Counted from the first letter of the stretch, positions 408 to 23,364 are shown. The stretch is DNA of 64,000 nt from Alphaproteobacteria bacterium (GCA_018654745.1 JABILA010000094.1:19237-83236), one strand, 5' to 3'. Notes: generated from the letters alone by a model not told the origin. Numbers and translations: made by a program.

Positions 408-1255
408 CTGTTCAGCCACATAAGCCTTTGCCAGCAGCATTTGACCTGAACGGCAAACATGCATTGATTACTGGCGGGGCGGGATTACTCGGCATTGAAC
501 ACGCCTGCGCACTTGTCGAAACGGGTGCCGTGATTGTTCTGACCGATCTTGACGAGAACCTTCTTGACCAGGCAGTGATAGAAATCCGGTCACGTTTTCC
601 TGAGAGTATTATCCATTCCTGGAAGATGGATGTAACAGATAAAGCATCCATCCTGTCTGTCAGCGAGAGATTGCGGGAATCTGATATCGATCTGGATATC
701 CTGATTAACAACGCAGCCATCGATAGCAAGGTAGATGAACACGGAAACATTGAGAATGGCGGCCGCTTTGAAGACTTTGAACTCGACGACTGGCAGGCCC
801 AGGTAGACGTTGGCCTGACCGGTGCATTTTTGTGTAGCCAGGTTTTTGGCCCTCCAATGGCGGTCCGGGAACAGGGTGTTATTCTGAACATTGCGTCGGA
901 TTTATCCGTTATCGCGCCGGATCAGCGAATTTATCGCCAGGAAGATTTGCCAGAGAATGAGCAACAAAAAAAGGCGGTAACTTATTCAGTGATAAAGACG
1001 GGTCTGCTCGGACTGACACGGTATCTGGCAGCTTACTGGGGCGAACAAGGTGTGCGCGTCAACGCCCTTTCTCCCGGAGGTATTCAAACCAGTCAATCGG
1101 ACGCATTTGTTACACGCCTGACAAATCTGATCCCTGCCGGACGAATGGCCCGGAAAAATGAATATGCCAGTGCGGTTCAATTTCTTTGCTCGGATGCCAG
1201 CCAGTTTATGACCGGTCAAAATATCGTCATGGATGGCGGGCGGTCGATCATATGA
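404..1255 (+). CDS. SDR-family oxidoreductase, PtmA (flagellin modification protein A)-like
   Basis: TGGAGLLG Rossmann motif, LINNAA, YSVIK catalytic YxxxK, VRVNALSPGG and C-terminal TGQNIVMDGG; the APDQRIY insert resembles SDRs of nonulosonic-acid clusters. Confidence 0.85.
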   Translation: MTVQPHKPLPAAFDLNGKHALITGGAGLLGIEHACALVETGAVIVLTDLDENLLDQAVIEIRSRFPESIIHSWKMDVTDKASILSVSERLRESDIDLDILINNAAIDSKVDEHGNIENGGRFEDFELDDWQAQVDVGLTGAFLCSQVFGPPMAVREQGVILNIASDLSVIAPDQRIYRQEDLPENEQQKKAVTYSVIKTGLLGLTRYLAAYWGEQGVRVNALSPGGIQTSQSDAFVTRLTNLIPAGRMARKNEYASAVQFLCSDASQFMTGQNIVMDGGRSII

Positions 1256-6019: not shown

Positions 6020-6125
6020 CTAGAGCGTTTCCGGGTTTCACGGAAACGCAGCGTTGCCTCAACCCCCTTGGTATGAGCCAATAAGCGAAGTAATATTGAT
6101 TCCGTTTAGACCGGAATCGCCCTAG
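6020..6125. repeat. ~105-bp CTAG-bounded palindromic intergenic repeat, copy 1 (CIR/BRU-RS/RIME-like)
   Basis: CTAGAGCGTTTCCG...CGGAAACGC left hairpin; GATTCCG...CGGAATC right hairpin with two GANTC sites; ends in CTAG; near-identical copy at 6174-6278. Confidence 0.85.
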
Positions 6126-6141
6126 CCTGGATTACAACGGC

Positions 6142-6158
6142 GAAACGATTTATTAACC
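6142..6158 (+). promoter_or_regulatory. CtrA-like site upstream of GT41 paralogue 2
   Basis: GAAA-CGATTTA-TTAACC; the 13-mer CGATTTATTAACC recurs exactly at 20396-20408 upstream of another GT41 gene. Confidence 0.45.
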
Positions 6159-6173
6159 CTGATTTCCTATATA

Positions 6174-6278
6174 CTAGAGCGTTTACGGGTTTGACGGAAA
6201 CGCAGCGTTGCCTCAAGCCCCTTGGTATGCGCCAATAGAATAAGCATAAGCGATTCCGTTTATCCGGAATCTCCCTAG
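6174..6278. repeat. ~105-bp CTAG-bounded palindromic intergenic repeat, copy 2
   Basis: Direct repeat of 6020-6125 (shared ACGGAAACGCAGCGTTGCCTCAA, CCCCTTGGTATG, GATTCCGTTTA, CCGGAATC, CCCTAG). Confidence 0.85.
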
Positions 6279-6284
6279 GAGGTT

Positions 6285-8939: not shown

Positions 8940-11355
8940 TCAAGACTTTGACGAACTGGTGGGCCAGGTAGAACTGGCTTTGCAAAATGGCGACATTCCG
9001 TCAGCCCAAAATTTTCTTGAAATCGCTGCTGCTCAAGCCCCGGACACAACGCTGGCTCACTTTCAATTGGGCAGCCTGAAGTTCAATCTGGGGGATTTCA
9101 AAGGGGCAATTCACCACTTCAAACAAGCTACTATCCTGGATCTGGAACTTCCTGAACCATGGCAGAACATGGGTTTGGCGCTGGAAGCAATGCTCCAATT
9201 TGAGGAAGCCATCCCTGCTTTCAGTCGCGCAACTGAATTAGCGCCTGATTGGCTCGATCCGTGGAAATCTTTGGGCTGTACCCTTGCCCGCCTGGACCGC
9301 TCTGCCGAAGCGATTAAGCCATTGGAAACAGCGAATAAACTTGCGCCAAATGATAGTCAGATCACATTTTTTCTCGGTAATTCGTATCTTGCCGCTGGCG
9401 ATTCCAATAATGCTGTCAGCACCCTGGGAATAGCCGCTGTTTTGTCGCCCGATGACGCAGATGTCTTGAATAACCTCGGCCAGGCTTTCGAGCTATCCGG
9501 TGATCTTGATAGTGCTGCAAATGCCTATGGCAATGCCAGAAAATCGTCGCCAGATCATCTTCGTGCAAACAGGGGATATGCCCGGACATTATTGCAATTA
9601 AAGAGGGGCGCAGAAGCGGAAGTCGCCTTGCGACAAATTATTTCCCTGAAACCGGAAGAACCTGAGGCCTATGTGGAGCTGGGTAGTTATCTGCAAAACA
9701 ACCAGCGCAATCGCGAAGCAGCAGACATCATGCTCAAGGCCGTCAATTTTGCCGGTGATGATCCGATTCTGGTCAATAATCTTGCCGTATCTCTCGCCAG
9801 CATAGGTGAATATTCCAAAGCCAAAAAATGGTACGACAAACTGATACAGCTGGTTCCAGACCGCGCGGGTCCGCTTGTTAATTATGCGACAATGCTGGAA
9901 ATGCTGGAGCGGTCGGACGAAGCTCTTGTCATGCTGCAGCACGCCGTCAGGATAGATCCATCCTACGCTCCTACATACTCACTTCTTGTCCACGGCAAGT
10001 TGAGACAATGCCAATGGGACAATCTTGAGGCGCTTGTGACCCGGATCATTGACGATTCAAAACAAGAGATTTCGGAAGGAAAACGCCTTTCCGCATTACC
10101 TTTTGTCCTTCTGGCCTTACCTGTACCGCTGGATATCAGACTGGAAGCTTCACGCCAACTGGCAACAACTGCCCGGTCGAGCGTACTGGCACCAACGCAA
10201 GAGACCCCATTCCACCACAATCCACAAAGTACATCTCGCAAAATCCGGGTCGGATATATTTCTCCCGATTTTCGAATGCACAGTGTAGGTATGTGTTTCC
10301 GGTCCATCGTGACTAATCACGACCGCCAGAAGTTTGAAGTTTTTGGCTATCACATGGCTACAAAGCCAGACGATGATACGACAACATTTTTCAAAGAGTC
10401 GTTTGATACGTTCCGCGATATTCGCGAACTTTCCACTGCTGATGCCGCCCGACTCATTCATGAAGATGGTATTGATATTCTGGTTGATCTGGCAGGGCAC
10501 ACACGGGGTTCCCGGATCGAAATACTTGCGCTGAAGCCGGCTCCCGTTCAAGTGCACTATCTGGGATATGGTGCCACAACAGGTGCTGATTTTATCGATT
10601 ACCTGATTACAGATGACACGGTGATGAACGAAGAAGCCTCTCGTTGGTGCAGTGAAGCATTGGCCTTTCTTCCACAAACCTTTATGCCGCCACTTGGCCT
10701 CCCTTGCCCAGCAAATACGCTGGATCGCCGGGAAGAAGGATTGCCGGAAAATGGTTTTGTTTTCTCAAATTTCAGCGCGCATTACAAAATCGACCCTGAA
10801 ATATTTTCAATCTGGATGAGAATACTGAAACGCACACCAGGAAGCGTATTGTGGTTGATTTCCGGATCCGAAAAGAGTGTCGAAAACCTGCGCAAAGAAG
10901 CAAAAGCCCGCGGTGTCGACCCGGAAAGATTGATCATGGCCCAACGTTGTGATCACGAAACTCATCTCGCCCGGCATCATCTGGCGGATTTATGTCTGGA
11001 CAATTATTTCCACGCTGGTGGCGCAACCACACTTGAGGCCCTTTCATGTGGACTTCCAGTCCTGACCCATCAGGGCCCTTACCCCAACTCCCGTACAGGC
11101 GCTGGTATGTTGAAAGCAGCAGGTCTTTCGGAATTGGTTGCCAGGGATTTGACTGAATATGGGAAAATTGCACTTGAACTCGCACAGTCTCCCGATCGCA
11201 TGTCTGCTCTGAGAAATCACCTGTCCGGAGACAAACAGGCACTCCCCTTGTTTAACAACATTCTTTTTGTATCCCGTCTTGAGCAACTTCTATTCGGAAT
11301 GTGGGAAAAATATCAGACGGGTGAACCAGCAGACACAATACGGCTTGATGATTAG
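8932..11355 (+). CDS. TPR + GT41 (OGT/SPINDLY-like) protein O-glycosyltransferase, paralogue 3
   Basis: TPRs plus IRVGYISPDFRMHS, DILVDLAGHT and FSAHYKIDP; start set at ATG 8932 (MADQDF), overlapping the upstream stop. Confidence 0.88.
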   Translation: MADQDFDELVGQVELALQNGDIPSAQNFLEIAAAQAPDTTLAHFQLGSLKFNLGDFKGAIHHFKQATILDLELPEPWQNMGLALEAMLQFEEAIPAFSRATELAPDWLDPWKSLGCTLARLDRSAEAIKPLETANKLAPNDSQITFFLGNSYLAAGDSNNAVSTLGIAAVLSPDDADVLNNLGQAFELSGDLDSAANAYGNARKSSPDHLRANRGYARTLLQLKRGAEAEVALRQIISLKPEEPEAYVELGSYLQNNQRNREAADIMLKAVNFAGDDPILVNNLAVSLASIGEYSKAKKWYDKLIQLVPDRAGPLVNYATMLEMLERSDEALVMLQHAVRIDPSYAPTYSLLVHGKLRQCQWDNLEALVTRIIDDSKQEISEGKRLSALPFVLLALPVPLDIRLEASRQLATTARSSVLAPTQETPFHHNPQSTSRKIRVGYISPDFRMHSVGMCFRSIVTNHDRQKFEVFGYHMATKPDDDTTTFFKESFDTFRDIRELSTADAARLIHEDGIDILVDLAGHTRGSRIEILALKPAPVQVHYLGYGATTGADFIDYLITDDTVMNEEASRWCSEALAFLPQTFMPPLGLPCPANTLDRREEGLPENGFVFSNFSAHYKIDPEIFSIWMRILKRTPGSVLWLISGSEKSVENLRKEAKARGVDPERLIMAQRCDHETHLARHHLADLCLDNYFHAGGATTLEALSCGLPVLTHQGPYPNSRTGAGMLKAAGLSELVARDLTEYGKIALELAQSPDRMSALRNHLSGDKQALPLFNNILFVSRLEQLLFGMWEKYQTGEPADTIRLDD

Positions 11356-11366
11356 ATTGGCACAAT

Positions 11367-11400
11367 AAAAAGGGCCGGGGTATCAACCCCGGCCTTTTTT
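11367..11400. terminator. Bidirectional Rho-independent terminator between the convergent GT41 and flagellin genes
   Basis: AAAAAG-GGCCGGGG-TATCAA-CCCCGGCC-TTTTTT: 8-bp GC stem with an A tract on one side and a T tract on the other. Confidence 0.9.
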
Positions 11401-11452: not shown

Positions 11453-12274
11453 TCAATTACCCTGGAACAAATTCAGAATGTGCTGTGGGCCCGAGTTTGC
11501 AATGGAAAGAGATTGAACTCCAAGTTTTTGTTTAACTTGTTGGGCCTGCAAATTGGCACTTTCTGCTCCAAGATCCGCGTCGATCAGATTGCCGACACCT
11601 TCTTTGAGGATATCTTGCAACTGAGTCGTAAACTTAGCCTGATTGTCGATTTGATTTGCAGAAGATCCAAGCGACGCCTGCTGGGCGGACGCGGTACTAA
11701 TTGCAGAATCAATCGCAGTTAAGGCGGTTTGAGAATTGGCAACGCTATCCAGACTAAGGGTATCAATTCCCAGTCCACCGGCGCTGAAATCCTGCGCGAC
11801 AACAGTCATCCGATTACCGTTGTCATCTTTCAGAACATCAAGATTGCCTGAACCCGCCTTGATCAGATTAGTTCCATTAAAGCTGGCTGATTCCACAATA
11901 GAACCGGCTTGATCACGCAGAGAATTGAATTCAGCATTCAGGGCTTCTCGCGATGTCGCGTCAAGACCTTCCTGGTTTGCCTGAACGGCAACTGACTTCA
12001 TCTCAATGAGCAAATCAGATACAGCCTGAGCGCCTACTTCGGCGACACCAACGGAGCTTTGGGCGAAGTTCAGACCACTTTTTACAGCGCCTGCACCGCC
12101 AATATCACCAAGCAATCTTTGTGCTATGGCCAAAGTGGCTGCGTCGTCTTTCGGACTGTTTATTTTAAGACCAGTAGAAATACGGTTGTTCGTATTTCCA
12201 ACAGACTTTGTTGTCTGATTCAGCTTTTGCAGCGCATTAAATGCGCCGGAATTTGTATTTATGGATTGCACCAT
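11453..12274 (-). CDS. fliC: Flagellin, divergent (minor) paralogue
   Basis: SINTNSGA...RISTGLKINSPKDDAA N-terminus; ASFNGTNL; NLIDADLGAESANLQAQQVKQKLGVQSLSIAN C-terminus. Confidence 0.93.
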   Translation of the reverse strand: MVQSINTNSGAFNALQKLNQTTKSVGNTNNRISTGLKINSPKDDAATLAIAQRLLGDIGGAGAVKSGLNFAQSSVGVAEVGAQAVSDLLIEMKSVAVQANQEGLDATSREALNAEFNSLRDQAGSIVESASFNGTNLIKAGSGNLDVLKDDNGNRMTVVAQDFSAGGLGIDTLSLDSVANSQTALTAIDSAISTASAQQASLGSSANQIDNQAKFTTQLQDILKEGVGNLIDADLGAESANLQAQQVKQKLGVQSLSIANSGPQHILNLFQGN

Positions 12275-12557
12275 AACTAAACCCTTTTTCTATTTCCGGC
12301 TGAGGCTTCTCCCCCTCCGGCGGGCCAATGCGTGTGCTTCTGCGACGCTTGTTTTCAATTGGCGGACAATTGAATACTTCACCCAATCATCCCCGGTATT
12401 CAAGGTGGATTTATCACCACCCATTACCACGGACACACGTCCAACCAATTTAATCTTTGTAAACTTTACCCTTTATTAACCAACGAAGCAAGGTTTAAAA
12501 CCATGACATCGCGAGCATCAAAAACACTCGCTTTGCCAATATCAAAATCGGGATCTG

Positions 12558-12604
12558 AAAGGAAGTTCCGGCTCCACCGACGATGCCAGTGGAACCGGAA
12601 TTTC
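12558..12604 (-). terminator. Stem-loop terminating flagellin operon A
   Basis: Minus strand GAAATTCCGGTTCCAC-N11-GTGGAGCCGGAACTTC-CTTTC directly after the stop at 12611. Confidence 0.65.
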
Positions 12605-12610
12605 TTACAC

Positions 12611-13426
12611 CTAACCGAACAGGGCCAGAATGCTTTGTGGGCCTGAATTTGCAATCGACAAAGCCTGCACACCAAGCTGTTGCTTGATTTGCAAGGACTG
12701 CAAGGCAGCACTTTCTTCAGCCAGGTCAGCGTCGACAAGGTTGCCTACACCTTCCTTCAGAATGTCGACCAACTGAATAGTAAATTCAGCCTGGACGTCA
12801 ATTCGTTTGGATGAAGAACCCAATGATGCCAAAGAGGAAGTCACCGAGTTGATAGCTGCATCGATTTTGGTTAATGCAGTTACAGCACCCGCAGACAGAT
12901 CCAATGAAGCGCTCTGAATGCCAAGGGTTGTGGCGTCCATGCTTTGTGCAGAAACCGAGATGGTACTGCCATCCACTGTCGAAAGAACCGTCAAGGCACT
13001 TGCAGCAGATGTGATCAGGTTCTTGCCGTTGAATTCAGCCGTTTTCACGATTGTTTCCAACTGATCACGAAGGCTGGTGAAGTCGTTATTCAAAGCAGTT
13101 CTGGAAGCAGTATCCAGTCCAGCCTGATTGGCCTGAACAACTTTGGCCTTCATTTCAGTCAACATGTCGGCCACAGCCTTACCAGCTGTAATCGCCACGT
13201 TAACTGTAGCCTCACCATTTGAAAGTGCTGTTTTAACAGCACCCATGCCGGCGATATCACCACGCATACGCTGTGCAATAGCGTAGGTAGCAGCATCATC
13301 TTTCGGGCCGTTCACTTTAAGGCCGGTCGTGATGTGCAGCTGGGTTGTCTCCAACATTTTGTTGGATTTGTTCAGGTTCTGCAAAGCCAGCATTGCGCCG
13401 ACGTTTGTATTTACTGACATTCCCAT
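12611..13426 (-). CDS. fliC: Flagellin (operon A, central type X)
   Basis: 271-aa short Caulobacter-type flagellin; TGLKVNGPKDDAA and NLVDADLAEESAALQSLQIKQQLGVQALSIAN; GGAG RBS. Confidence 0.97.
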   Translation of the reverse strand: MGMSVNTNVGAMLALQNLNKSNKMLETTQLHITTGLKVNGPKDDAATYAIAQRMRGDIAGMGAVKTALSNGEATVNVAITAGKAVADMLTEMKAKVVQANQAGLDTASRTALNNDFTSLRDQLETIVKTAEFNGKNLITSAASALTVLSTVDGSTISVSAQSMDATTLGIQSASLDLSAGAVTALTKIDAAINSVTSSLASLGSSSKRIDVQAEFTIQLVDILKEGVGNLVDADLAEESAALQSLQIKQQLGVQALSIANSGPQSILALFG

Positions 13427-13498
13427 TGTAGATGTCTCCTATTCTGAGAGCATTTAAACGACGTCTTCTGACGTCTCTTACGCTTGGTTTCGCTTTCC

Positions 13499-14308
13499 TT
13501 AGCCGAACAGGGCCAGAATGCTTTGTGGGCCAGAATTTGCGATAGACAGAGCCTGCACACCAAGCTGTTGCTTGATTTGTAAGGACTGCAAAGCAGCACT
13601 TTCTTCAGCCAGATCAGCGTCAACAAGGTTGCCAACACCTTCCTTCAGAATGTCGACCAGCTGAACGGTAAATTCAGCCTGAACATCAATCCGTTTGGAA
13701 GAAGAACCCAACGATGCCAGTGAAGAAGTCACTGTGTTAATCGCAGCATCAATCGCAACCAGAGCAGCAGATGCACCACTCGAGATGTTGGATGCGTTAA
13801 TACCCAGTGTTGTGGTATCAAGCTTTTGTGCTGCAACCGAGATCGAACTGCCGTCAACGGTAGAAAGAACCGTCAAAGAAGTCGCAGCAGAAGTGATCAG
13901 GTTTTTGCCGTTGAATTCAGCCGTCTGCACGATCGTCGTCAACTGATCGCGAAGGGAGGTGAAATCATTCTGCAAGGCATCTTTGGAAGCTGTATCCAAA
14001 CCAGCCTGGTTGGCTTGAACGGTTTTGGCTTTCATTTCTGTCAGCATGTCAGCCACAGCTTTACCAGCTGTAATCGCCACGTTAACAGTTGCCTCACCGT
14101 TTGAAAGAGCTGTTTTAACAGCACCCATACCGGCAATATCACCACGCATCCGTTGTGCGATAGCGTATGTAGCAGCATCATCTTTCGGGCCGTTAACTTT
14201 CAGGCCTGTCGTGATGTGCAACTGGGTTGTCTCCAACATTTTGTTGGATTTGTTGAGGTTCTGCAGAGCCAGCATTGCGCCAACATTTGTATTTACGGAC
14301 ATTCCCAT
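13499..14308 (-). CDS. fliC: Flagellin (operon A, central type Y)
   Basis: 269 aa; same termini as its neighbours; central AQKLDTTTLGINASNISSGASAALVAID. Confidence 0.97.
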   Translation of the reverse strand: MGMSVNTNVGAMLALQNLNKSNKMLETTQLHITTGLKVNGPKDDAATYAIAQRMRGDIAGMGAVKTALSNGEATVNVAITAGKAVADMLTEMKAKTVQANQAGLDTASKDALQNDFTSLRDQLTTIVQTAEFNGKNLITSAATSLTVLSTVDGSSISVAAQKLDTTTLGINASNISSGASAALVAIDAAINTVTSSLASLGSSSKRIDVQAEFTVQLVDILKEGVGNLVDADLAEESAALQSLQIKQQLGVQALSIANSGPQSILALFG

Positions 14309-14377
14309 TTTAGTCGTCTCCTATTCTGAGAGTATTTATTCGACGTCTTCTGACGCCTCTTGGTTTTCGTCTTATCC

Positions 14378-15193
14378 TTAGCCGAACAGGGCAAGAATAC
14401 TTTGCGGACCGGAGTTCGCGATGGACAGAGCCTGCACGCCAAGCTGTTGCTTGATTTGCAATGACTGCAATGCAGCGCTTTCTTCGGCCAGATCGGCATC
14501 AACGAGGTTGCCAACACCTTCTTTCAGAATGTCGACCAGCTGAACGGTAAATTCAGACTGAACGTCAATCCGTTTGGATGATGAACCCAGTGATGCCAGT
14601 GATGCAGTAACCGAGTTGATCGCAGCGTCGATTGTAGTTAGTGCAGTTGCTGCACCCGAAGCACTGGTCAGGATGTCAGCTTCAATGCCAAGAGCGGTTG
14701 CATTCATGACCTGGGCTGATACAGAGATGGTGCTGCCATCTACTGTCGAAAGCACGGTCAAGGCACTTGCGCCGGTCGTAATCAGGTTTTTACCGTTGAA
14801 TTCAGCTGTCTGAACAATTGTCTCCAGCTGATCACGCAGAGATGTAAAGTCATTGTTCAAAGCAGTTCTGGATGCTGTATCCAGACCAGCCTGATTGGCC
14901 TGCACGACCTTGGCTTTCATTTCGGTCAACATGTCGGCCACAGCTTTACCAGCTGTAATAGCCACGTTCACAGTTGCCTCACCGTTTGAAAGCGCTGTTT
15001 TAACAGCACCCATACCGGCGATATCGCCACGCATCCGTTGCGCAATAGCGTATGTAGCAGCATCATCTTTCGGGCCATTCACTTTCAGGCCGGTCGTGAT
15101 GTGCAGCTGGGTTGTTTCCAACATTTTGTTGGATTTGTTCAAATTCTGCAGCGCCAACATGGCACCGACATTGGTATTTACGGACATTCCCAT
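14378..15193 (-). CDS. fliC: Flagellin (operon A, central type Z)
   Basis: 271 aa; central TTGASAL...AQVMNATALG...ASGAATALT; AAGGAG RBS. Confidence 0.97.
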   Translation of the reverse strand: MGMSVNTNVGAMLALQNLNKSNKMLETTQLHITTGLKVNGPKDDAATYAIAQRMRGDIAGMGAVKTALSNGEATVNVAITAGKAVADMLTEMKAKVVQANQAGLDTASRTALNNDFTSLRDQLETIVQTAEFNGKNLITTGASALTVLSTVDGSTISVSAQVMNATALGIEADILTSASGAATALTTIDAAINSVTASLASLGSSSKRIDVQSEFTVQLVDILKEGVGNLVDADLAEESAALQSLQIKQQLGVQALSIANSGPQSILALFG

Positions 15194-15268: not shown

Positions 15269-15284
15269 AGCAACGAACGTGCCA
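15269..15284 (-). promoter_or_regulatory. Sigma-54 (-24/-12) promoter of flagellin operon A
   Basis: Minus strand TGGCACGTTCGTTGCT matches TGGCAC-N5-TTGCW, ~75 bp upstream of the start codon. Confidence 0.9.
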
Positions 15285-15390
15285 TTTTTGCCGACAGGCA
15301 GGAATTTCTTGTTGTTTTTATATCCTATTGATATTAAACGATTTTATTCATGGTAAATGCATTGTTAATAAGCAAAGGTTGCCATATCAG

Positions 15391-15425
15391 CCCGGCATTT
15401 ATTACCGGGTCGGCAATATCTGCCG
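15391..15425. promoter_or_regulatory. Tandem ftr-like (FlbD-type enhancer) palindromes
   Basis: CCCGGCATTTATTACCGGG and CGGCAATATCTGCCG, ~110-140 bp upstream of the sigma-54 promoter and separated from it by an AT-rich (IHF-like) tract. Confidence 0.65.
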
Positions 15426-15666
15426 CATGACAAGAACTATTTGCCTGGCTGCACACAGAACACACTGCTGCATATACAGTTCGTGCAATTTTCATGAATA
15501 AAAGTTGACTGACGCCTATCGGTTAGCCGGCGAACACGATCAGTTCAGGTATGGAAGAAAGACTATTTATTGAGAGTTTTCCGGGTAGAATCCCTGGTGC
15601 AGCTGAGTACCTATCTTTGAAGGTCCAACGTCTCGCAAACCAGATAACTCGGATAATGGAGTATGT

Positions 15667-16038
15667 TCAGCTTTCGCTGTCCGGAACAGCTGCCTGGGCA
15701 TTTAGCCCTTCCATGATCGATCTGTTTACTGACACTAGTGGATCAAGATCGCCAATGCCCTTGAGGACGTCAACAGTATAGCGATCAACCCACATTGCCA
15801 GGGAGATCAACTGAGCCCTGAGATCTTCATCAAGGGCATTGTCTTCTGAGGAAAGATCCATTTGCAAAGCCAGCCAGAGGCGGCGATTTGCATCAATGGC
15901 TTCAAAGTAGTCAGACCCCATGCGACCGCTTTCGGAAACGGCCATCAAGTTTCGTGTTATTTCAGCAAACAGGCGATATTCTGCCTGGCGTGGTGCATCG
16001 AACTTGGATTGGGCTGATTTGTATTTGTCGTAAGACAT
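15667..16038 (-). CDS. flaF: FlaF-family flagellin regulator/chaperone (canonical type)
   Basis: PRQAEYRLFAEIT, AIDANRRLW, DNALDEDLRAQLISLAMWV and LVSVNRSIMEGL. Confidence 0.9.
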   Translation of the reverse strand: MSYDKYKSAQSKFDAPRQAEYRLFAEITRNLMAVSESGRMGSDYFEAIDANRRLWLALQMDLSSEDNALDEDLRAQLISLAMWVDRYTVDVLKGIGDLDPLVSVNRSIMEGLNAQAAVPDSES

Positions 16039-16116
16039 TCCAGGCGGTCCATCCAGGCATTCAACTGTCGCCGAAAATTGCGGGAAAGACGACTGTCATA
16101 GATGCTAGGACCACAA

Positions 16117-16133
16117 GGTTAGCGGAATGTTAA
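16117..16133 (-). promoter_or_regulatory. CtrA-type binding site upstream of flaF (16038)
   Basis: Minus strand TTAA-CATTCCG-CTAACC, one mismatch to TTAA-N7-TTAAC. Confidence 0.65.
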
Positions 16134-16248
16134 CGGAAGAGAAATTTCGTGGTCGCCGAAAGCCAGTGCCCGAGGCCCCTGCCAGTACCAATACAGTAAC
16201 GGCAGGGATATCTCAGCGGGCAATCGATATCAGAATATTACTGTTCTA

Positions 16249-16590
16249 TCAGGTTAAACCTTCCATGATAGAACGGTTAACTGAAATCAGCGGCGCAATC
16301 CGGGCTTTGCCCTTCATTGCTAGGCTGGAATGTTTGTCGACCCAGATAGCCAACGACAAGAGTTTGGCTTTCAATTCATCTGGCAACAAATTGTCTTCAG
16401 CGGCCAAGTCAAACTGCAGTGTCGACCAAAGACGACGATTCCAGTCCACAGCGCCGTAAAACTGTTTGTCACTGTGTTCCTTGTCTTCAGCGTCCATAAG
16501 AGAACGTGTGACAAGGGCAAACAGCCGGTATTCGGTCTGACGGGGGCCTTCCGTAATGGCCTGGGTTGCCTGATAAGATTGCGTGTACAT
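16249..16590 (-). CDS. flaF: FlaF-family flagellin regulator/chaperone (canonical type)
   Basis: YQATQ...PRQTEYRLFALVT, AVDWNRRLW, DNLLPDELKAKLLSLAIWV and PLISVNRSIMEGL. Confidence 0.92.
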   Translation of the reverse strand: MYTQSYQATQAITEGPRQTEYRLFALVTRSLMDAEDKEHSDKQFYGAVDWNRRLWSTLQFDLAAEDNLLPDELKAKLLSLAIWVDKHSSLAMKGKARIAPLISVNRSIMEGLT

Positions 16591-16662
16591 TTGCTGATAC
16601 CTTTCTTGATCTTCGTCTTGGAATATCTATTGATAACTTGATGAAGTAGAGGACTTTCTGGA

Positions 16663-17475
16663 TTAGCCACCAAACAGTGACAGGATGCTTTGTGGACCCG
16701 AGTTCGCAATCGACAAGGCCTGAACACCGAGTTGTTGTTTGATTTGCAAGGCCTGCAAGCTGGCGCTTTCTTCCGCAAGATCTGCATCAACAAGGTTGCC
16801 GACGCCTTCTTTCAGAATATCAACCAGTTGAGTTGTAAAGTCAGTTTGCACCTCAATACGTTTCGCAGCAGAACCCAACGAGGCAAGGCTTGAGGTCACC
16901 GTATTGATCGCCGCATCGATGGCAACCAGCGCTGCAGAAGCACCGCTGGAAATATTCGATGTGCTAATCCCCAGCGTAGCGGCGTCAAGTTTCTGGGCAC
17001 CTACCGAGATCACACTACCGTCGACTGTCGACAAGACTGTCAAAGATGTTGCGACTGATGAAATAAGGTTCTTGCCGTTGAATTCAGCGGTCTGAACAAT
17101 TGTCTGAAGTTGATCGCGCAGAGACGTAAAGTCATCATTCAAAGCTGTCTTGGAAGCCGTATCCAGTCCGGCTTGATTGGCTTGCACTGTCTTGGCTTTC
17201 ATTTCTGTCAACATGTCAGAAATCGCTTTACCGGCGGTAATCGCAACGTTGAGCGTCGACTCACCTGCCGCCAGAGCAGTTTTCACTGCCTGCATGCCAG
17301 CAATATCGCCACGCATACGCTGGGCAATGGCGTAAGTCGATGCATCATCCTTTGGTCCGTTGACCTTCAAACCAGTGGTGATATGCAACTGTGTTTTTTC
17401 CAACTGATCATTAGACCGGTTCAGATTCTGCAGCGCGATCATGGCACCGACGTTTGTATTAATTGACATACCCAT
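16663..17475 (-). CDS. fliC: Flagellin (operon B, central type Y)
   Basis: 270 aa; B-type N-terminus (NRSNDQLEKTQ); central AQKLDAATLGISTSNISSGASAALVAID; GAGGAG RBS. Confidence 0.97.
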   Translation of the reverse strand: MGMSINTNVGAMIALQNLNRSNDQLEKTQLHITTGLKVNGPKDDASTYAIAQRMRGDIAGMQAVKTALAAGESTLNVAITAGKAISDMLTEMKAKTVQANQAGLDTASKTALNDDFTSLRDQLQTIVQTAEFNGKNLISSVATSLTVLSTVDGSVISVGAQKLDAATLGISTSNISSGASAALVAIDAAINTVTSSLASLGSAAKRIEVQTDFTTQLVDILKEGVGNLVDADLAEESASLQALQIKQQLGVQALSIANSGPQSILSLFGG

Positions 17476-17547
17476 TGTTTTTCTCCTCGTAGAATTTCTA
17501 TTCTGATTGATTGATTGGTGTTTCGATATTCGCTGGCGACCCGATCG

Positions 17548-17883
17548 TCAGGTCAGCCCGTCGATAACATTCCGATTAACAACAATCAGTGGATTAATTC
17601 TGCCTTCACCACGAAGGACCCTCGCCGTTTGTTCTTCTACCCAGGCACCTAGCTGATCGATCTGATCGCGCAATTCCGCAGGCAAGCGGTTGGCGCGGGA
17701 CATAACATCGCGCCTCAAGGCACTCCACAAAGAACGGTTACGGTGAAGTGCAGCATAGTAATCAAAATCCGGTTTCTCAGAGTTGCCAGCTTCGATCAGC
17801 TCTTCCGTGATCATGCGCATGATTTTTTGTTCGTCTATGCGACGATCGATGTCTGCTTTCATGCTCTTTGTGGTATTTGTCAT
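17548..17883 (-). CDS. flaF: Divergent FlaF-like protein
   Basis: ALHRNRSLW, ANRLPAELRDQI..LGAWV and PLIVVNRNVIDGL align with the FlaF C-terminal pattern; the PRxxEYRLF motif is absent. Confidence 0.8.
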   Translation of the reverse strand: MTNTTKSMKADIDRRIDEQKIMRMITEELIEAGNSEKPDFDYYAALHRNRSLWSALRRDVMSRANRLPAELRDQIDQLGAWVEEQTARVLRGEGRINPLIVVNRNVIDGLT

Positions 17884-17940
17884 ATTGTTTCTCTTTGAGT
17901 TTCGTTTAGTTGATCGTTTTGATAGCTGGCGTCAGACTGC

Positions 17941-18759
17941 TTATCCACCGAACAGTGACAGGATGCTCTGAGGACCAGAGTTGGCAATTGACAGCGCTTG
18001 AACACCAAGCTGTTGTTTGATTTGAAGGGCCTGCAAGCTGGCGCTCTCTTCAGCAAGATCTGCATCTACCAGGTTTCCGACACCCTCTTTGAGAATATCA
18101 ACCAACTGCACAGTGAAATCTGTCTGAACTTCAATCCTCTTGGCAGAAGAACCGAGCGACGCCAGTGACGAAGTTACTGAGTTGATTGCAGCATCGATAC
18201 TTGTCAGCGCGGTTGCGGCACCTGATGCATCCGCCAGGGTACTCGTATCAAGCCCGAGGGCCGTTGCATTCATAACCTGTGGGGTAACAGAAATTGTGCT
18301 GCCATCAACAGTGGACAATACCGTCAAGGCACTGGCACCGGTGGTGATCAGGTTTTTGCCATTAAATTCGGCAGTTTGTACGATTGTCTCAAGCTGGTCG
18401 CGCAAGGAGGTGAAATCATCACTCAATGCGACCCTTGATGCGGTATCCAGTCCGGCCTGGTTGGCCTGAACGGCTTTCGCTTTCATTTCAGTCAGCATGT
18501 CCGAGATAGCTTTACCGGCAGTGATGGCCACATTCAGGGTCGACTCGCCTGCCGCTAGTGCCGTCTTAACGGCCTGCATGCCTGCAATATCACCGCGCAT
18601 ACGCTGGGCAATCGCATATGTTGACGCATCGTCCTTCGGGCCGTTCACCTTCAAGCCGGTTGTGATATGCAACTGTGTCTTTTCCAACTGGTCATTAGAC
18701 CGGTTCAGGTTCTGCAGTGCGATCATGGCGCCGACGTTGGTGTTAATGGACATACCCAT
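17941..18759 (-). CDS. fliC: Flagellin (operon B, central type Z)
   Basis: Start at ATG 18759 (MGMSINT) after AGGAG; central TTGASAL...QVMNATALG...ASGAATALT. Confidence 0.97.
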   Translation of the reverse strand: MGMSINTNVGAMIALQNLNRSNDQLEKTQLHITTGLKVNGPKDDASTYAIAQRMRGDIAGMQAVKTALAAGESTLNVAITAGKAISDMLTEMKAKAVQANQAGLDTASRVALSDDFTSLRDQLETIVQTAEFNGKNLITTGASALTVLSTVDGSTISVTPQVMNATALGLDTSTLADASGAATALTSIDAAINSVTSSLASLGSSAKRIEVQTDFTVQLVDILKEGVGNLVDADLAEESASLQALQIKQQLGVQALSIANSGPQSILSLFGG

Positions 18760-18868
18760 TGTATTTTCTCCTGCTTCAACAGCTTCAATGCTGTCGTTAG
18801 TTTCGTTCAATAACTTGAGATATTACGTATTGCTTGATGATGACTGTTTTCAGTGATGAACAGACTTG

Positions 18869-19204
18869 CTAAGCCAATCCATCGATGACGTTGCGGTTGA
18901 CGACGATCAGCGAATTGATCTCGCTTTCGCCACGGAGAACACGCGCTGTTTGCTCTTCTACCCAACGTCCCAATTGATCGATCTGTTCGCGCAAATCTTG
19001 TGGCAAACGGTTGGCCCTGGACATGACGTCCTGACGTAATGCACTCCACAGAAATTTGTTGCGATCAAGCGCTTCAAAATAATCAGCGTCCCGTTGGCTG
19101 GAGCCGCCTGCCTTAATCAGATCTTCAGTCACATGAAGCAAAACTTTTTGCTCTTCTGCACGACGATCGAGGTCTGATTGGGTATTTGCTGAAACATTAC
19201 TCAT
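18869..19204 (-). CDS. flaF: Divergent FlaF-like protein
   Basis: ALDRNKFLWSALRQDVMSRANRLP...WVEEQTARVLRGE...LIVVNRNVIDGL; close paralogue of 17548-17883. Confidence 0.8.
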   Translation of the reverse strand: MSNVSANTQSDLDRRAEEQKVLLHVTEDLIKAGGSSQRDADYFEALDRNKFLWSALRQDVMSRANRLPQDLREQIDQLGRWVEEQTARVLRGESEINSLIVVNRNVIDGLA

Positions 19205-19261
19205 CGCATTTCTCTCTTTTGTCTTCTGATGATCCGGAGGATGATTAGTGATCTACGTTGC

Positions 19262-20080
19262 TTAGCCGCCGAACAAGGACAAGATGCTCTGAGGACCAGA
19301 GTTCGCAATCGACAAAGCCTGCACGCCAAGTTGCTGTTTGATCTGCAATGCCTGCAATGATGCACTCTCTTCAGCGAGATCAGCATCCACCAGATTTCCA
19401 ACACCCTCTTTGAGAATATCGACAAGTTGAGTCGTAAAATCTGTTTGAACTTCAATTCGTTTGGCGGAAGAACCCAGCGAGGCCAGCGATGAAGTAACGG
19501 AGTTTATTGCTGCATCAATTTGCGTCAAAGCTGTAGCGGCAGATGCAGATAAATCCAGCCCTGAAGTCAAAATCCCCAGCGTTGTTGCATCCATACTTTG
19601 GGCAGTCACTGAAATTGTGCTGCCATCAACAGTCGACAGAACGGTCAAGGCGCTTGCGGCCGAGGTAATCAGGTTCTTGCCGTTGAATTCAGCTGTTTGA
19701 ACAATCGTCTCGAGTTGATCACGAAGAGACGTAAAGTCATCATTCAATGCTGTGCGCGACGCACCATCCAGACCGGCCTGATTGGCCTGAACAGCTTTCG
19801 CCTTCATTTCAGTCAGCATGTCCGAGATGGCTTTACCGGCAGTAATTGCGACATTCAAGGTCGATTCGCCAGCGGCCAGTGCTGTTTTGACGGCCTGCAT
19901 ACCGGCGATGTCACCGCGCATGCGCTGGGCAATGGCATAAGTCGATGCGTCGTCTTTTGGTCCATTGACCTTCAAACCAGTGGTGATGTGGAGCTGCGTT
20001 TTCTCCAATTGATCATTTGACCGGTTCAGGTTCTGCAGTGCGATCATGGCACCGACGTTGGTATTGATGGACATTCCCAT
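19262..20080 (-). CDS. fliC: Flagellin (operon B, central type X)
   Basis: Start at ATG 20080 (MGMSINT) after AAGGAG; central AQSMDATTLGILTSGLDLSA. Confidence 0.97.
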   Translation of the reverse strand: MGMSINTNVGAMIALQNLNRSNDQLEKTQLHITTGLKVNGPKDDASTYAIAQRMRGDIAGMQAVKTALAAGESTLNVAITAGKAISDMLTEMKAKAVQANQAGLDGASRTALNDDFTSLRDQLETIVQTAEFNGKNLITSAASALTVLSTVDGSTISVTAQSMDATTLGILTSGLDLSASAATALTQIDAAINSVTSSLASLGSSAKRIEVQTDFTTQLVDILKEGVGNLVDADLAEESASLQALQIKQQLGVQALSIANSGPQSILSLFGG

Positions 20081-20158
20081 AACTTGTATCTCCTTGAGGC
20101 CTTGGTTCTTGCCTAAAATTACTACCCGGCACATTTGCCGTTGTTCGCCAAGTGTTTC

Positions 20159-20173
20159 GCAATAGGCATGCCA
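20159..20173 (-). promoter_or_regulatory. Sigma-54 (-24/-12) promoter of flagellin operon B
   Basis: Minus strand TGGCATGCCTATTGC with correct GG-N10-GC spacing, ~80 bp upstream of ATG 20080. Confidence 0.85.
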
Positions 20174-20285
20174 GTTTGAATTCACGCACCCCAGATGGAC
20201 CGTAAGTATTTGTTATTGCTATGTTTTGCATGGACCATTATCAATTTTTTCCCCAACCTAATTTGGTGTCCTGCCCCTCTACTGA

Positions 20286-20343
20286 CGGCAAATCAGGCCC
20301 CTGGGAGGCGTTTTTTGCCTTCCAGGATGCAGGTGTTGCCGGG
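20286..20343. promoter_or_regulatory. Degenerate ftr-like palindromes upstream of the operon B promoter
   Basis: CGGCAAATCAGGCCC, AGGCGTTTTTTGCCT and ATGCAGGTGTTGCCGGG at ~20-bp periodicity; a further CCCGGCACATTTGCCG lies at 20125-20140. Confidence 0.45.
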
Positions 20344-20430: not shown

Positions 20431-23364
20431 ATGAATAACGCTGATGAAATCCTTGAAAACGCTGTCGCAGCCCACAGGGCCGGAGATGCCGTAACTGCAG
20501 TGAGCCTTTATCGACAAGTGCTGGCCATATCGCCGGATAATGGTGATGCTTTGCGCAATCTGGCGACCCTTCTGGCGACAAGCGGAGAGCTGGAGGAAGC
20601 TGCTGACCTCTACCACAGTGCTTTATTACTGGACCCCCATGACCTGGCTGTTCTAACCAACATGGGTCACATCCTTCGGGCCCTGGGAAAAACTGACGAA
20701 GCTTGCTCTCTTTATAATAGGGTACTGGAAATCGCTCCGGATCAAAGCGAGATCAGGATTGCACTGGCTGATATACATCTGCTGGAAGGCAAAGCTGAAA
20801 TCGCCGCGGAGCATTATAAGGAAGCCATCGAACGTGGCACATCGCATAGTCGCATACATGCAAATCTCGCCGCAGCGCTACATTCCCTTGATCGATTGAC
20901 GGAAGCTCTCGAACAGTCAGAAATCGCGGTTCGACTGGACGTCGAAAATGCCGATGCCTTGAACATCATGGGTAGGGTCAAGTCAGGGCAGAACAAGTTC
21001 GAAGAAGCGGTGTCAGCCTTTCAGGGTGCGATACATTTGCGTCCAGACTGGTATCCGCCTCGGCTGGACCTTGGCATCACATGGCAAAAATTGGGAAAAT
21101 TGCCTGAGGCACTGGAGGCGCTGGAACAAGCATGGATGCTTAATCCAAACGATCTGGAAACCGGCAAGGCAATGGTCTCAGTTATGATTGCGCTCGGTCA
21201 GACTGAGGAAGCTGAAGATCTACTCAACACCCTGGACAAAATATTTCCGGAAAATAGTGAACTGCCATTTCACCGGGCAATTAACGACCGGTCCATGGGC
21301 AAACTCGAAGAATCTGTAGACCTTTTCAGGCTTGCGATTGAGCGGGGTCTGGATGCGCCGGAAGCGCACAACAATCTTGCTGTATCACTTTTTGATCTAC
21401 GACGCCTGGATGAAACATTCGCTGCCGCCAATAAGGCAATCGCACTCGATCCTGATTTTCCCTCTGCTTACAACACCTTAGGGAACTGGGCCTCGGAAGT
21501 TGGGGAACTCGCCAAGGCAAAGAACTATTACCTGAAGGCCAATGAGCTTGAACCGGATTTTGCGGCTGCTATTTCCAATGCAGCTTATGTTACACGCTTG
21601 CAAGGTTCACTGGACGAATCTATCCAGCTTTACAAAACGGCCCTTGATATTGACCCACAGCTCGCTGAAGCGTGGAGTGGCCTCGGCCTGACTTATCAAC
21701 AGAACAATCGATTTACGGAGGCCCTGGCAGCTTTCGACGAAGGGCTAAAGGGCCACCCGGATAACTGGGAGCTATTAAACAACAAAGCGATCAGCTATCA
21801 GGCAACCGGACATATCGACGAAGCTCTTGCGACCTACAAATCAGCTTTGGACTCCAAGCCGGACAACCCGGAAATCTATTACAATCTGGGTAACTTGCTG
21901 TTGACCTTAAAGCGAATCGACGAAGCAATTGAGATGTTCAATGCCGCTCTTCGCTTGCGGCCAGATTACAATGCCGTTTTTTCCTACCTGGCCCATGCCT
22001 TGATGCAGCAATGCAACTGGGTCAACCTGGAGGCGGCCATCGAGCGTATTGAGCAAAACATCGCAGAAGAAGTGAAAAGCGGCAAAACTATTAGCACTTC
22101 TCCGTTCAGCATGCTGAGTTTACCGGTTCCGGCCCAATACAGGCTCCTGAGTTCCAGGCAATTGGCAGCCCAAACTGCTATGGAACTGGAACACCAACGC
22201 AAAAGTATCAAGTTTCAATATAAGCCAAAAGGTGAAAAGCTAAAAATCGGTTACGTTTCACCGGACTTCCGTCGGCACAGCCTGGGCTTGACTTTCCTGG
22301 ACCTTTTGATGGCGCACGATAATGATTCGTTCGAGTTTTATGGATACGCCATGTTCTCAAACGATCCAGATGAAGTCACCAACCAGTTCGGGAAGGTCTT
22401 TGATCATTTCCGGGATTTGACACCCTGTTCCCATGAAGATTCTGCCCGTGTCATTAATGAGGATGGCATCAATATTCTTGTAGATCTTGCAGGTTACACA
22501 AAAGGGTCCCGTCTACAAATTTTTTCCCTGCTGCCGGCGCCTGTTCAAGTTCATTATCTGGGTTATGGCCACACCTTGGGGGCAGATTTTATCCCATGGC
22601 TCATCACAGATCACGATGTGATCCCTGAAGACATAGCAGCGCACTGTAGTGAAAAATTGATATATCTGCCCGATAGTTTCCTCGCCACATCCCGACACGA
22701 AATTTCACAGGTAAAGCAATCACGTGCCGACTTCGGACTACCCGAAAATGCTTTTGTCCTCGCCAACTTCAATGGGTTATACAAGATAGATCCAAAAGCC
22801 TTCGCGGTTTGGATGCGATTTATGCGAAAGACTCCGGACGCCATACTCTGGCTCTCTGCAGGAACTGTGGGCGGTGAAAACAATCTTCGCAAGGAAGCCG
22901 AGGCCCGGGGCGTACAGCCTGACAGGATAATTTTTGCAAAGAACATTCCGCATACAAGTCACCTGGCGCGGCTGCAACTTGCCGATATTGCGCTCGACGC
23001 CTACTACCATTCAGGCGGCGTAACCACCACTGACGCCATATGGGCGGGATTACCTATCTTGACAGTCGCTGGCCCTACACCGAGTGCACAAACAGGCGTA
23101 TCCGTCTTAAAAGCGGCGAGGTTACCGGAGTTGATCACATATTCCCTGGATGAATATGAAAAACAATTGCACCACCTTGCCGGCAACCGGGAAGAATTGG
23201 CGAAAATCAGGAGCCGTATGACATCTACCAGAGATGAAGTTCCACTATTTGATTCCCAACGCCTCGCCCGTCACCTCGAGCTTGGTTACAACATGATGTG
23301 GGAACAATACGAGGCAGGGTTAGAGCCGAAAGGCTTTGATATCCCAGCTATTTCCCAGGTATAG
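20431..23364 (+). CDS. TPR + GT41 (OGT/SPINDLY-like) protein O-glycosyltransferase, paralogue 4
   Basis: Long TPR array plus LKIGYVSPDFRRHS, ILVDLAGYT, FNGLYKIDP and DAIWAGLPILT; divergent from flagellin operon B. Confidence 0.9.
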   Translation: MNNADEILENAVAAHRAGDAVTAVSLYRQVLAISPDNGDALRNLATLLATSGELEEAADLYHSALLLDPHDLAVLTNMGHILRALGKTDEACSLYNRVLEIAPDQSEIRIALADIHLLEGKAEIAAEHYKEAIERGTSHSRIHANLAAALHSLDRLTEALEQSEIAVRLDVENADALNIMGRVKSGQNKFEEAVSAFQGAIHLRPDWYPPRLDLGITWQKLGKLPEALEALEQAWMLNPNDLETGKAMVSVMIALGQTEEAEDLLNTLDKIFPENSELPFHRAINDRSMGKLEESVDLFRLAIERGLDAPEAHNNLAVSLFDLRRLDETFAAANKAIALDPDFPSAYNTLGNWASEVGELAKAKNYYLKANELEPDFAAAISNAAYVTRLQGSLDESIQLYKTALDIDPQLAEAWSGLGLTYQQNNRFTEALAAFDEGLKGHPDNWELLNNKAISYQATGHIDEALATYKSALDSKPDNPEIYYNLGNLLLTLKRIDEAIEMFNAALRLRPDYNAVFSYLAHALMQQCNWVNLEAAIERIEQNIAEEVKSGKTISTSPFSMLSLPVPAQYRLLSSRQLAAQTAMELEHQRKSIKFQYKPKGEKLKIGYVSPDFRRHSLGLTFLDLLMAHDNDSFEFYGYAMFSNDPDEVTNQFGKVFDHFRDLTPCSHEDSARVINEDGINILVDLAGYTKGSRLQIFSLLPAPVQVHYLGYGHTLGADFIPWLITDHDVIPEDIAAHCSEKLIYLPDSFLATSRHEISQVKQSRADFGLPENAFVLANFNGLYKIDPKAFAVWMRFMRKTPDAILWLSAGTVGGENNLRKEAEARGVQPDRIIFAKNIPHTSHLARLQLADIALDAYYHSGGVTTTDAIWAGLPILTVAGPTPSAQTGVSVLKAARLPELITYSLDEYEKQLHHLAGNREELAKIRSRMTSTRDEVPLFDSQRLARHLELGYNMMWEQYEAGLEPKGFDIPAISQV

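Follow-up and report, generated by a model that had tools for sequence, protein, structure and literature searches.

Why would a bacterium encode a FlaF protein directly after one flagellin gene and then again after the next? The question is raised by a 64,000-nucleotide (nt) stretch of the genome of an uncultured marine Alphaproteobacteria bacterium (GCA_018654745.1, JABILA010000094.1:19237-83236; hereafter the window), in which three flagellin genes alternate with three flaF genes and a fourth flaF gene follows. In Caulobacter, FlaF is described as a flagellin secretion chaperone (PMC7591256). A first-pass annotation of the window had proposed that each of its FlaF proteins is dedicated to one flagellin, as its chaperone or as its antagonist, and had singled out two of them, here called FlaF', as divergent. 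We read the four flaF open reading frames (ORFs) of the window as working FlaF-family genes that are expressed, and find that FlaF', judged by alignment and tree, is a real and distinct subfamily. That the FlaF paralogues are chaperones matched to a class of flagellins, and transcribed with that class, is in our estimate an evenly balanced proposition, in which we infer the predicted binding, the class specificity and the operon boundaries.

A divergent FlaF branch in a flagellin array

The genes concerned are given below, with starts within the window ORFs chosen by us from reading the sequence; the stretch from Fla1 through FlaF3 is called operon B and Fla4-Fla6 operon A. The window lies on assembly contig C6 and begins at C6:19237.

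19262-20080, minus strand: Fla1, class-B flagellin, 272 amino acids, middle-region type 1 (ORF, flagellin N-domain match)
18869-19204, minus strand: FlaF'1, divergent FlaF paralogue, 111 amino acids (ORF, Pfam PF07309, 80.8 bits)
17941-18759, minus strand: Fla2, class-B flagellin, 272 amino acids, middle-region type 2 (ORF, flagellin N-domain match)
17548-17883, minus strand: FlaF'2, divergent FlaF paralogue, 111 amino acids (ORF, Pfam PF07309, 80.5 bits)
16663-17475, minus strand: Fla3, class-B flagellin, 270 amino acids, middle-region type 3 (Pfam Flagellin_N and Flagellin_C)
16249-16590, minus strand: FlaF3, canonical-type FlaF, 113 amino acids (Pfam PF07309, 113.6 bits)
15667-16038, minus strand: FlaF4, FlaF with a short C-terminal tail, 123 amino acids (Pfam PF07309, 104.7 bits)
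12611-15193, minus strand: Fla4, Fla5 and Fla6, class-A flagellins of middle-region types 2, 3 and 1 (ORFs, Pfam, identity matrix)
11453-12274, minus strand: Fla7, divergent flagellin (Pfam, identity matrix)
C6:13565-13915, before the window: FlaF0, a fifth FlaF, directly adjoining flbT (profile match)

The minus-strand ORFs and their Pfam matches bear out the annotated order of flagellin-flaF'-flagellin-flaF'-flagellin-flaF followed by a separate flaF, and the order of ORFs likewise confirms that operon A is free of flaF, with none between the flagellin genes of operon A and Fla7 (11453-15193). Spacers from Fla1 through FlaF3 measure 57-109 nt; FlaF4 is separated from FlaF3 by a 210-nt gap and from Fla4 by 473 nt. 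The same array order recurs in the same-genus genome G001 and in the independent metagenome contigs L024-L027, so the layout is not an assembly artefact.

All four small ORFs exceed the Pfam PF07309 cut-off of 23.6 bits, with coverage from profile positions 1-13 to position 113, and this includes both FlaF' ORFs, whose failure to match the FlaF profile the first-pass annotation had named as something that would tell against it. The NCBIfam equivalog NF009435 (cut-off 91) is reached by two of the four, FlaF3 (114 bits) and FlaF4 (99.5 bits), and FlaF'1 and FlaF'2 lie below it at 79.3 and 75.7 bits; by these profile scores FlaF'1 and FlaF'2 are FlaF family members according to Pfam and not equivalogs at the NCBI threshold. 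The alignment agrees with the motifs first read by eye: FlaF'1 and FlaF'2 have D-R-R-x-x-E-Q-K and share DVMSRANRLP and WVEEQTARVLRGE, and FlaF3, FlaF4 and FlaF0 have P-R-x-x-E-Y-R-L-F, a helix-1 motif whose use as a criterion comes from the earlier note and is not a published definition. The FlaF' clade retains the FlaF core (R15, E18, T26, N49, R50, W53, W81, V82, G92, N103, G109 and L110) and departs from the family at few class-specific positions, chiefly at position 14, the start of the lost PRxxEYRLF, which is P in 85% of the non-FlaF' rows and R in 88% of the FlaF' clade. FlaF'1 and FlaF'2 share 67% identity with each other and 29-35% with FlaF3, FlaF4 and FlaF0; FlaF3 is 65% identical to the flbT-linked FlaF0.

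Profile searches of the genome (assembly completeness 94.7%) found five FlaF matches, all on contig C6, and a single FlbT match at C6:13923-14294, which lies 4,943 bases before the window start. The window thus lacks flbT, as annotated, and the location that the annotation had asked for is beside FlaF0, the only one of the five FlaFs in the canonical context directly adjoining flbT; the four window genes lie elsewhere. FlbT is directly upstream of a FlaF in eight related loci.

A word-indexed search with FlaF'1 yielded 17 proteins of 22 candidates, all of 111 amino acids and 62-99% identical, and an exhaustive search of cluster representatives gave 418 matches at E <= 0.001, one of them below 1e-30 and the next at 2e-20, a gap which indicates that the close FlaF' group is narrow. 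Close FlaF' proteins are carried by one species genome in the collection (L023, an Alphaproteobacteria metagenome-assembled genome) and by eight metagenome loci. Flagellin-flaF' units were found again in G001, in G013 from another family of the same order, in G019 and in metagenome loci L024-L030, the unit count being one in L029 and L030 and two in this genome (G000), G001 and G013. The gene orders are as follows:

G001 and L027: Fla-F'-Fla-F'-Fla-F3-F4-Fla-Fla-Fla-Fla
L025: Fla-F'-Fla-F'-Fla-F3
L029: Fla-F'-Fla-Fla-F3-like
L030: Fla-F'-Fla-F3-F4-Fla-Fla
G013: Fla-F-Fla-F-Fla-Fla-Fla-Fla-F in the array, with Fla-FlbT-FlaF elsewhere on the contig
G019: Fla-F

A tree was built from 49 FlaF sequences, with 22 representatives from the neighbourhood and with L016-L019 left out as distant, and nine sequences were labelled by position only, as lying directly after a flagellin gene, while F3-position and end-of-array copies were labelled apart. 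All nine interleaved FlaFs, which come from six assemblies and two families (G000, G001, L029, L030, G013 and G019), form one branch with support of 97/92 that is present in 100% of 200 bootstrap trees, bearing out the claim that a divergent FlaF subfamily exists. The flbT-linked, F3 and F4 copies all fall on the opposite side of the tree; the F3 clade (support 96/87) and the F4 clade (94/84) are both conserved within the genus group. On this topology and these gene orders FlaF' is an old, orthologous subfamily that always lies directly 3' of a flagellin gene.

The profile search proposed for genomes with three or more flaF genes was run on 401 genomes of the class, of which 157 have a FlaF match. 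By hand count there is one match in 114 of these, two in 31, three in 5, four in 5 and five in 2, in agreement with the annotation's statement that flaF is usually single-copy; the two five-match genomes are this genome and its congener G001. Arrays of at least four separate flaF genes are rare and were seen in 3/401 genomes (G000, G001 and G013), all of them in the window's own order, which is represented by 23 species genomes, 9 with any FlaF. In a search covering mostly open-access literature at the level of titles and abstracts, we found no papers describing multiple bacterial flaF paralogues; within that scope the FlaF' subfamily and the interleaved flagellin-flaF layout are unreported, and the FlaF chaperone family itself is known.

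Flagellin classes, transcription and selection

The six similar flagellins of the window form a 2x3 matrix, with termini that are specific to the operon and middle-region types that are common to both operons. Their termini (residues 1-100 and 206 to the end) are 99-100% identical within operon B (Fla1-3), 97-100% within operon A (Fla4-6) and 85-88% between the two. The middle region (residues 101-205) instead pairs across operons (Fla1/Fla6 90%, Fla2/Fla4 87%, Fla3/Fla5 87%) and is 71-84% identical within one operon, with 71-83% among Fla1-3. Given the near-identity of their termini, only the middle region could tell Fla1-3 apart. Within operon B, nonsynonymous divergence (dN) over residues 1-100 is 0.00-0.01 at a synonymous divergence (dS) of 1.4-2.0, and over residues 206 to the end it is 0.01-0.04, with dS of 2.0-2.4 in two of three pairs and saturated in the third. 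Such low dN at high dS means that selection, not recent gene conversion, has kept the termini of operon B identical. The same flagellin matrix is found in G001; it may serve to build two segments of the filament, or a complex filament whose subunits come in pairs. Fla7, at 54-57% identity to the other six, is a candidate specialised flagellin that may sit near the hook or have a regulatory role like that of FljJ.

The G013 array has two flagellins that precede interleaved FlaFs, and the termini of these two are 95-97% identical. Against the flbT-linked flagellin and the three similar flagellins of the array their terminus identity drops to 71-78%, and against the divergent sixth to 49-56%; the three similar ones are 90-93% identical to one another in their termini. 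Together with the window's genus, this makes two lineages in which flagellins with a FlaF of their own have termini of a distinct class. Middle-region types 1-3 were not recognisable outside the genus when looked for in L029, L030 and G013.

The candidate control elements around these genes are the following:

20159-20173, minus strand: sigma-54-type element TGGCAT-N5-TTGC, one mismatch, 79 nt before the Fla1 start
16119-16133, minus strand: CtrA-box-like element TTAACATTCCGCTAA, 81 nt before the FlaF4 start
15270-15284, minus strand: sigma-54-type element TGGCAC-N5-TTGC, exact, 77 nt before the Fla4 start
12566-12600: strong terminator-like hairpin after Fla6 (hairpin scan)
11373-11394: terminator-like hairpin after Fla7 (hairpin scan)

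Scored against the -24/-12 consensus TGGCAC-N5-TTGC, the whole window has 12 sigma-54-type matches against 7.2 +/- 2.9 expected. In G001, the element at 15270-15284 is conserved together with its whole leader, and the element at 20159-20173 and part of its leader are identical while the sequence upstream is not. These two elements are likely the promoters of operon A and operon B, respectively, and FlaF'1, FlaF'2 and FlaF3 would then most likely share a single sigma-54-type promoter, and a single transcript, with the class-B flagellins Fla1-3, so that a chaperone cistron would come after every flagellin cistron. Upstream of the operon-A element by roughly 105-180 nt lies a block of about 60 nt (about 15389-15448, minus strand) that is nearly identical in G001. 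With its two short palindromes, CGGCA-N5-TGCCG and CCCGG-N9-CCGGG, this block may be where a sigma-54 activator binds as at an enhancer.

The first-pass annotation had also given the fourth flaF its own CtrA-type site. The element TTAACATTCCGCTAA reads TTAA-N7-CTAA, one mismatch from TTAA-N7-TTAA, and the window has 14 matches to the latter at one mismatch or fewer where shuffled sequence gives 20.7 +/- 4.4, a CtrA-type count no higher than chance. The TTAACATTCCGCTAA block is nonetheless conserved within the genus and is identical in G001 and metagenome strain L025, the surrounding intergenic region being 135/228 identical. By eye, similar TTTAC-N7-TAACC strings precede the end-of-array FlaFs of G013 and G021. 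It is plausible that TTAACATTCCGCTAA is a separate control point for FlaF4, which, with its own conserved upstream element, would probably be expressed separately.

Comparison of G000 with G001 gave dN/dS ratios of 0.11 for FlaF'1, 0.07 for FlaF4 and 0.04 for FlaF0, and dN values of 0.082 for FlaF'2 and 0.059 for FlaF3, dS being saturated for both of the last two. By these substitution rates all five flaF genes are under purifying selection, and both FlaF' paralogues are older than the split of the two genomes. Expression of the FlaF' ORFs, the lack of which would have weakened the first-pass interpretation, is indicated by RNA-library contigs that cover both, with a strand that is not resolvable: contigs from four metatranscriptome runs in four studies, one of them possibly the source study of this DNA, lie on all four window flaF genes at 95-100% identity. 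The Fla2/FlaF'2 junction is bridged with zero differences by contigs of three runs (X16, X17 and X18), and the Fla1/FlaF'1 junction by one X15 contig with 11 differences, from a related strain; stretches without RNA-contig cover are no evidence of silence. The array region 15500-20300 is further represented by 79-91% of sampled words in 12 marine or seawater DNA runs from at least 11 studies, besides two possible source runs, and is partly present in six metatranscriptome runs. The organism seems widespread in seawater.

Proposed class-matched chaperones and other readings

The reading we prefer, in which FlaF paralogues are matched to flagellin class, would work as follows. Operon B would encode its own chaperone supply, one cistron per flagellin cistron; FlaF' would handle flagellins with B-type termini and deliver them to a single export gate; and export of Fla7 and of the class-A flagellins would depend on FlaFs of canonical type, namely FlaF4 and the flbT-linked FlaF0. 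The genome has one FlhA, which implies one flagellar export apparatus as far as assembled. A profile search of this genome gave no match to the export chaperone FliS (PF02561), and among 14 control genomes FlaF matched only in Caulobacter, where FliS had no match; FliS did match in E. coli, Bacillus and Thermotoga, a pattern that fits FlaF standing in for FliS. The predicted structure of FlaF'1 (16-row alignment; predicted local distance difference test score 85.2, predicted template modelling score 0.71) is a bundle of four helices, which span residues 3-34, 40-60, 69-90 and 97-110. In a Foldseek search with this model the top four rows are FliS export chaperones at template modelling scores of 0.55-0.70, with no row at E <= 0.001, and a sequence profile search of the PDB returned only the FliS entry 5xef_A at E 0.58. 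The modelled fold thus fits a FliS-like chaperone without proving one. Co-folding of Fla1 with FlaF'1, run without controls, gave scores of 0.22 and 0.18, the mark being 0.32, and is uninformative either way.

Several observations weigh against class-matched chaperones. The E-values of the FliS rows in Foldseek are 0.29 or worse, and in the VIA search, which is independent of Foldseek, FliS ranks 2, 10, 14 and 19 with Z of 8.8-10.1, scores that unrelated helical bundles also reach and that the search program itself flags as non-discriminating. The FlaF of Caulobacter reportedly binds each of that organism's six flagellins (PMC7591256), so specificity among paralogues is not a known property of the family. 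FlaF3, of canonical type, also follows a class-B flagellin, and operon B therefore mixes both kinds of FlaF. The differences between A and B termini are modest (12-15%) and mostly conservative, the classes are weakly separated in L029 and L030 (89-97%), and the comparison of terminus classes covers two independent lineages only. A common origin of the B-type flagellins in the two families was tried with a tree of the termini, which groups flagellins by lineage and not by class; B-type termini of the two families are thus not shown to share an origin, nor is one excluded. On the side of transcription, the terminator scan found no convincing terminator-like site between Fla1 and FlaF4, but its 15 sites compare with 9.7 +/- 3.3 by chance, and the lack of sites is therefore weak evidence; the RNA-library contigs give no strand or level, DNA carry-over is possible, and there is no silent control stretch.

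The interpretation in the first-pass annotation stands only in part. The FlaF' subfamily and its link to flagellins hold; the strict one-to-one pairing of dedicated chaperones does not follow from the data. It would require that each FlaF recognise its upstream neighbour's middle region, and perhaps the matching middle region in operon A as well. Such an arrangement would account for the fact that each operon-B flagellin is followed by its own, different FlaF, would make use of the only parts that distinguish Fla1-3, and would agree with the conservation in G001 of the three middle-region types and of the FlaF'1/FlaF'2/FlaF3 order. Yet operon A has the same three types without any flaF, the termini of Fla1-3 are all but the same, the number of units varies, and a single Caulobacter FlaF serves six flagellins in the same source (PMC7591256). 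The ratio of flaF genes to flagellins is 2/3 on the part of the L029 locus covered, 3/5 in L030 (one cut by the locus end) and 3/6 in the G013 array, and with types that are unrecognisable outside the genus there is no independent covariation test. By analogy with FliS, for which a complex with its cognate partner has been solved (according to the title of 1ory), binding to the terminus would be expected. We consider strict pairing quite improbable.

If the chaperones see termini, then those of Fla1-3 would be indistinguishable to them, and the extra copies could be a matter of dosage: a flagellin-flaF unit would have been duplicated in tandem, and the additional FlaFs would be interchangeable general chaperones, retained only to scale chaperone supply to a very high flagellin output. 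The promiscuity described for the Caulobacter protein, the best studied of the alphaproteobacterial chaperones (PMC7591256), the change in unit number from 1 to 2 between relatives, and the presence of a chaperone cistron after each flagellin cistron, as stoichiometric co-expression would have it, are all consistent with this. Interchangeable copies would, however, be expected to be lost or homogenised, and both FlaF' predate the G000/G001 split under purifying selection; moreover, FlaF' has diverged far from the other three FlaFs, FlaF'1 and FlaF'2 from each other to a lesser extent, and the age of the well-supported FlaF' clade is such that two families share it. We regard dosage or redundancy as possible but unlikely. 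A regulatory role is distinctly doubtful in our view. Here FlaF' would impose a sequence on the synthesis of the flagellin types, either by influencing how the following flagellin cistron is translated or by opposing the one FlbT; each flaF' does lie immediately upstream of the next flagellin gene, its product has lost the helix-1 motif, NCBIfam names the family 'flagellar biosynthesis regulator FlaF', and in the Caulobacter model the FlaF/FlbT pair controls flagellin translation (PMC7591256). FlbT is described there as binding only the regulatory flagellin FljJ. Nothing in the sequences points to RNA binding, though, and the genome's one flbT is paired with a canonical flaF. Regulation would also overlap with the chaperone model because the regulatory effect of FlaF in Caulobacter is currently taken to follow from secretion itself (PMC7591256).

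Beyond class-matched chaperones as such, a more elaborate version is that a chaperone code sorts flagellins at one export gate: the FlaF'/FlaF3 set would recognise only B-type termini, possibly as a hetero-oligomer, and would set the order or place of the two classes in one filament. The hetero-oligomer is hinted at by naturally fused triple-FlaF proteins of other Alphaproteobacteria, and we offer the whole idea as tentative and rather improbable. The readings bear on how bacteria with multiple flagellins decide when each subunit is exported, and on why so many flagellins are kept. The locus is a natural experiment in this respect, with a FlaF subfamily tied to particular flagellins, termini held by selection and exposed middle regions common to both operons. 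If class specificity were true, a few chimeric flagellins could map FlaF recognition, and export order would be settable by chaperone paralogy; if the FlaFs were interchangeable, the locus would be a neat case of gene dosage.

Known systems, tandem FlaF proteins and neighbouring genes

Like FlaF of Caulobacter crescentus, the window proteins match PF07309 (4/4), have 111-123 amino acids and keep the core residues, with an all-helical model for FlaF'1, and their genes lie in the flagellin locus of an alphaproteobacterium without a FliS match. Unlike that protein, which is encoded by one copy beside flbT, FlaF is here present in five copies, four of them away from flbT and three interleaved with flagellins, and the FlaF' of the window differ from it in lacking PRxxEYRLF and in falling under the NCBIfam equivalog cut-off. 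The several similar flagellins accompanied by one divergent flagellin (Fla7 here, FljJ in Caulobacter) recall fljJKLMNO of Caulobacter and flaA-D of Agrobacterium and Sinorhizobium; in contrast to those loci, chaperone genes are interleaved and the same middle-region types stand on operon-specific termini in two operons. FliS of enterobacteria, Bacillus, Aquifex and Helicobacter resembles FlaF' in being a small four-helix bundle and in its presumed job of escorting flagellin to the export gate, but there is no significant sequence relation between the two, and the window genes are interleaved with flagellins. FliS is generally encoded by one gene, set in a context of the fliD-fliS-fliT type, and binds the C-terminal part of flagellin.

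Three FlaF domains also occur together in one organism as fused triple-FlaF proteins of other Alphaproteobacteria. These are single polypeptides of 327-343 amino acids encoded away from flagellin genes, whereas the FlaFs of the window are separate genes after flagellins. Of the ten genomes in which FlaF matched three or four times, five were inspected, a set that does not include G219, G325, G326 and G418 (three matches each). As separate flaF arrays we rejected G093, G120 and G305, where a single open frame of 347-390 amino acids contains three matches, and G073, where two lie in one 308-amino-acid frame, each of these four genomes also having one ordinary FlaF; G160 was rejected because it has only fragments, in frames of 50-118 amino acids. 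One fused protein was confirmed, with 336 amino acids and three FlaF domains, encoded after flgF-flgG-flgA-flgH. Proteins of 280-343 amino acids with two or three tandem FlaF domains are encoded directly after the same four genes in other Alphaproteobacteria, which have one ordinary FlaF in addition, and the representative search gave the multi-stretch FlaF proteins P0021, P0059, P0063 and P0116. The existence of tandem-domain proteins suggests that FlaF may work as an oligomer. Their coordinates are:

L032, 6136-7146, plus strand: tandem FlaF-domain protein
L033, 2484-3515: tandem FlaF-domain protein
L034, 5899-6882: tandem FlaF-domain protein
L035, 5394-6236: tandem FlaF-domain protein

Flagellin N-domain matches in the assembly number eight, seven in the window and one on assembly contig C44 (6040-6882, plus strand), the latter a solitary flagellin with no FlaF, flagellin or FlbT profile match among nearby ORFs. 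Flanking the array, at 1186-11355 and 20431-23364 (both plus strand), are four large proteins combining TPR with GT41 (O-GlcNAc-transferase-like) domains and one TPR-only protein; the genome has seven GT41 TPR proteins, and the design resembles that of FlmG-type flagellin glycosyltransferases such as Caulobacter FlmG, a hint that the various flagellin types may be served by more than one glycosyltransferase. Adjoining the array at 23348-44055 is a large sugar-modification island with four B12-binding and two further radical SAM enzymes, FkbM-type and other methyltransferases, RmlC/RmlD-like enzymes, a nucleotidyltransferase and glycosyltransferases, and judging from this gene content the island probably makes an unusual, heavily methylated flagellin glycan.

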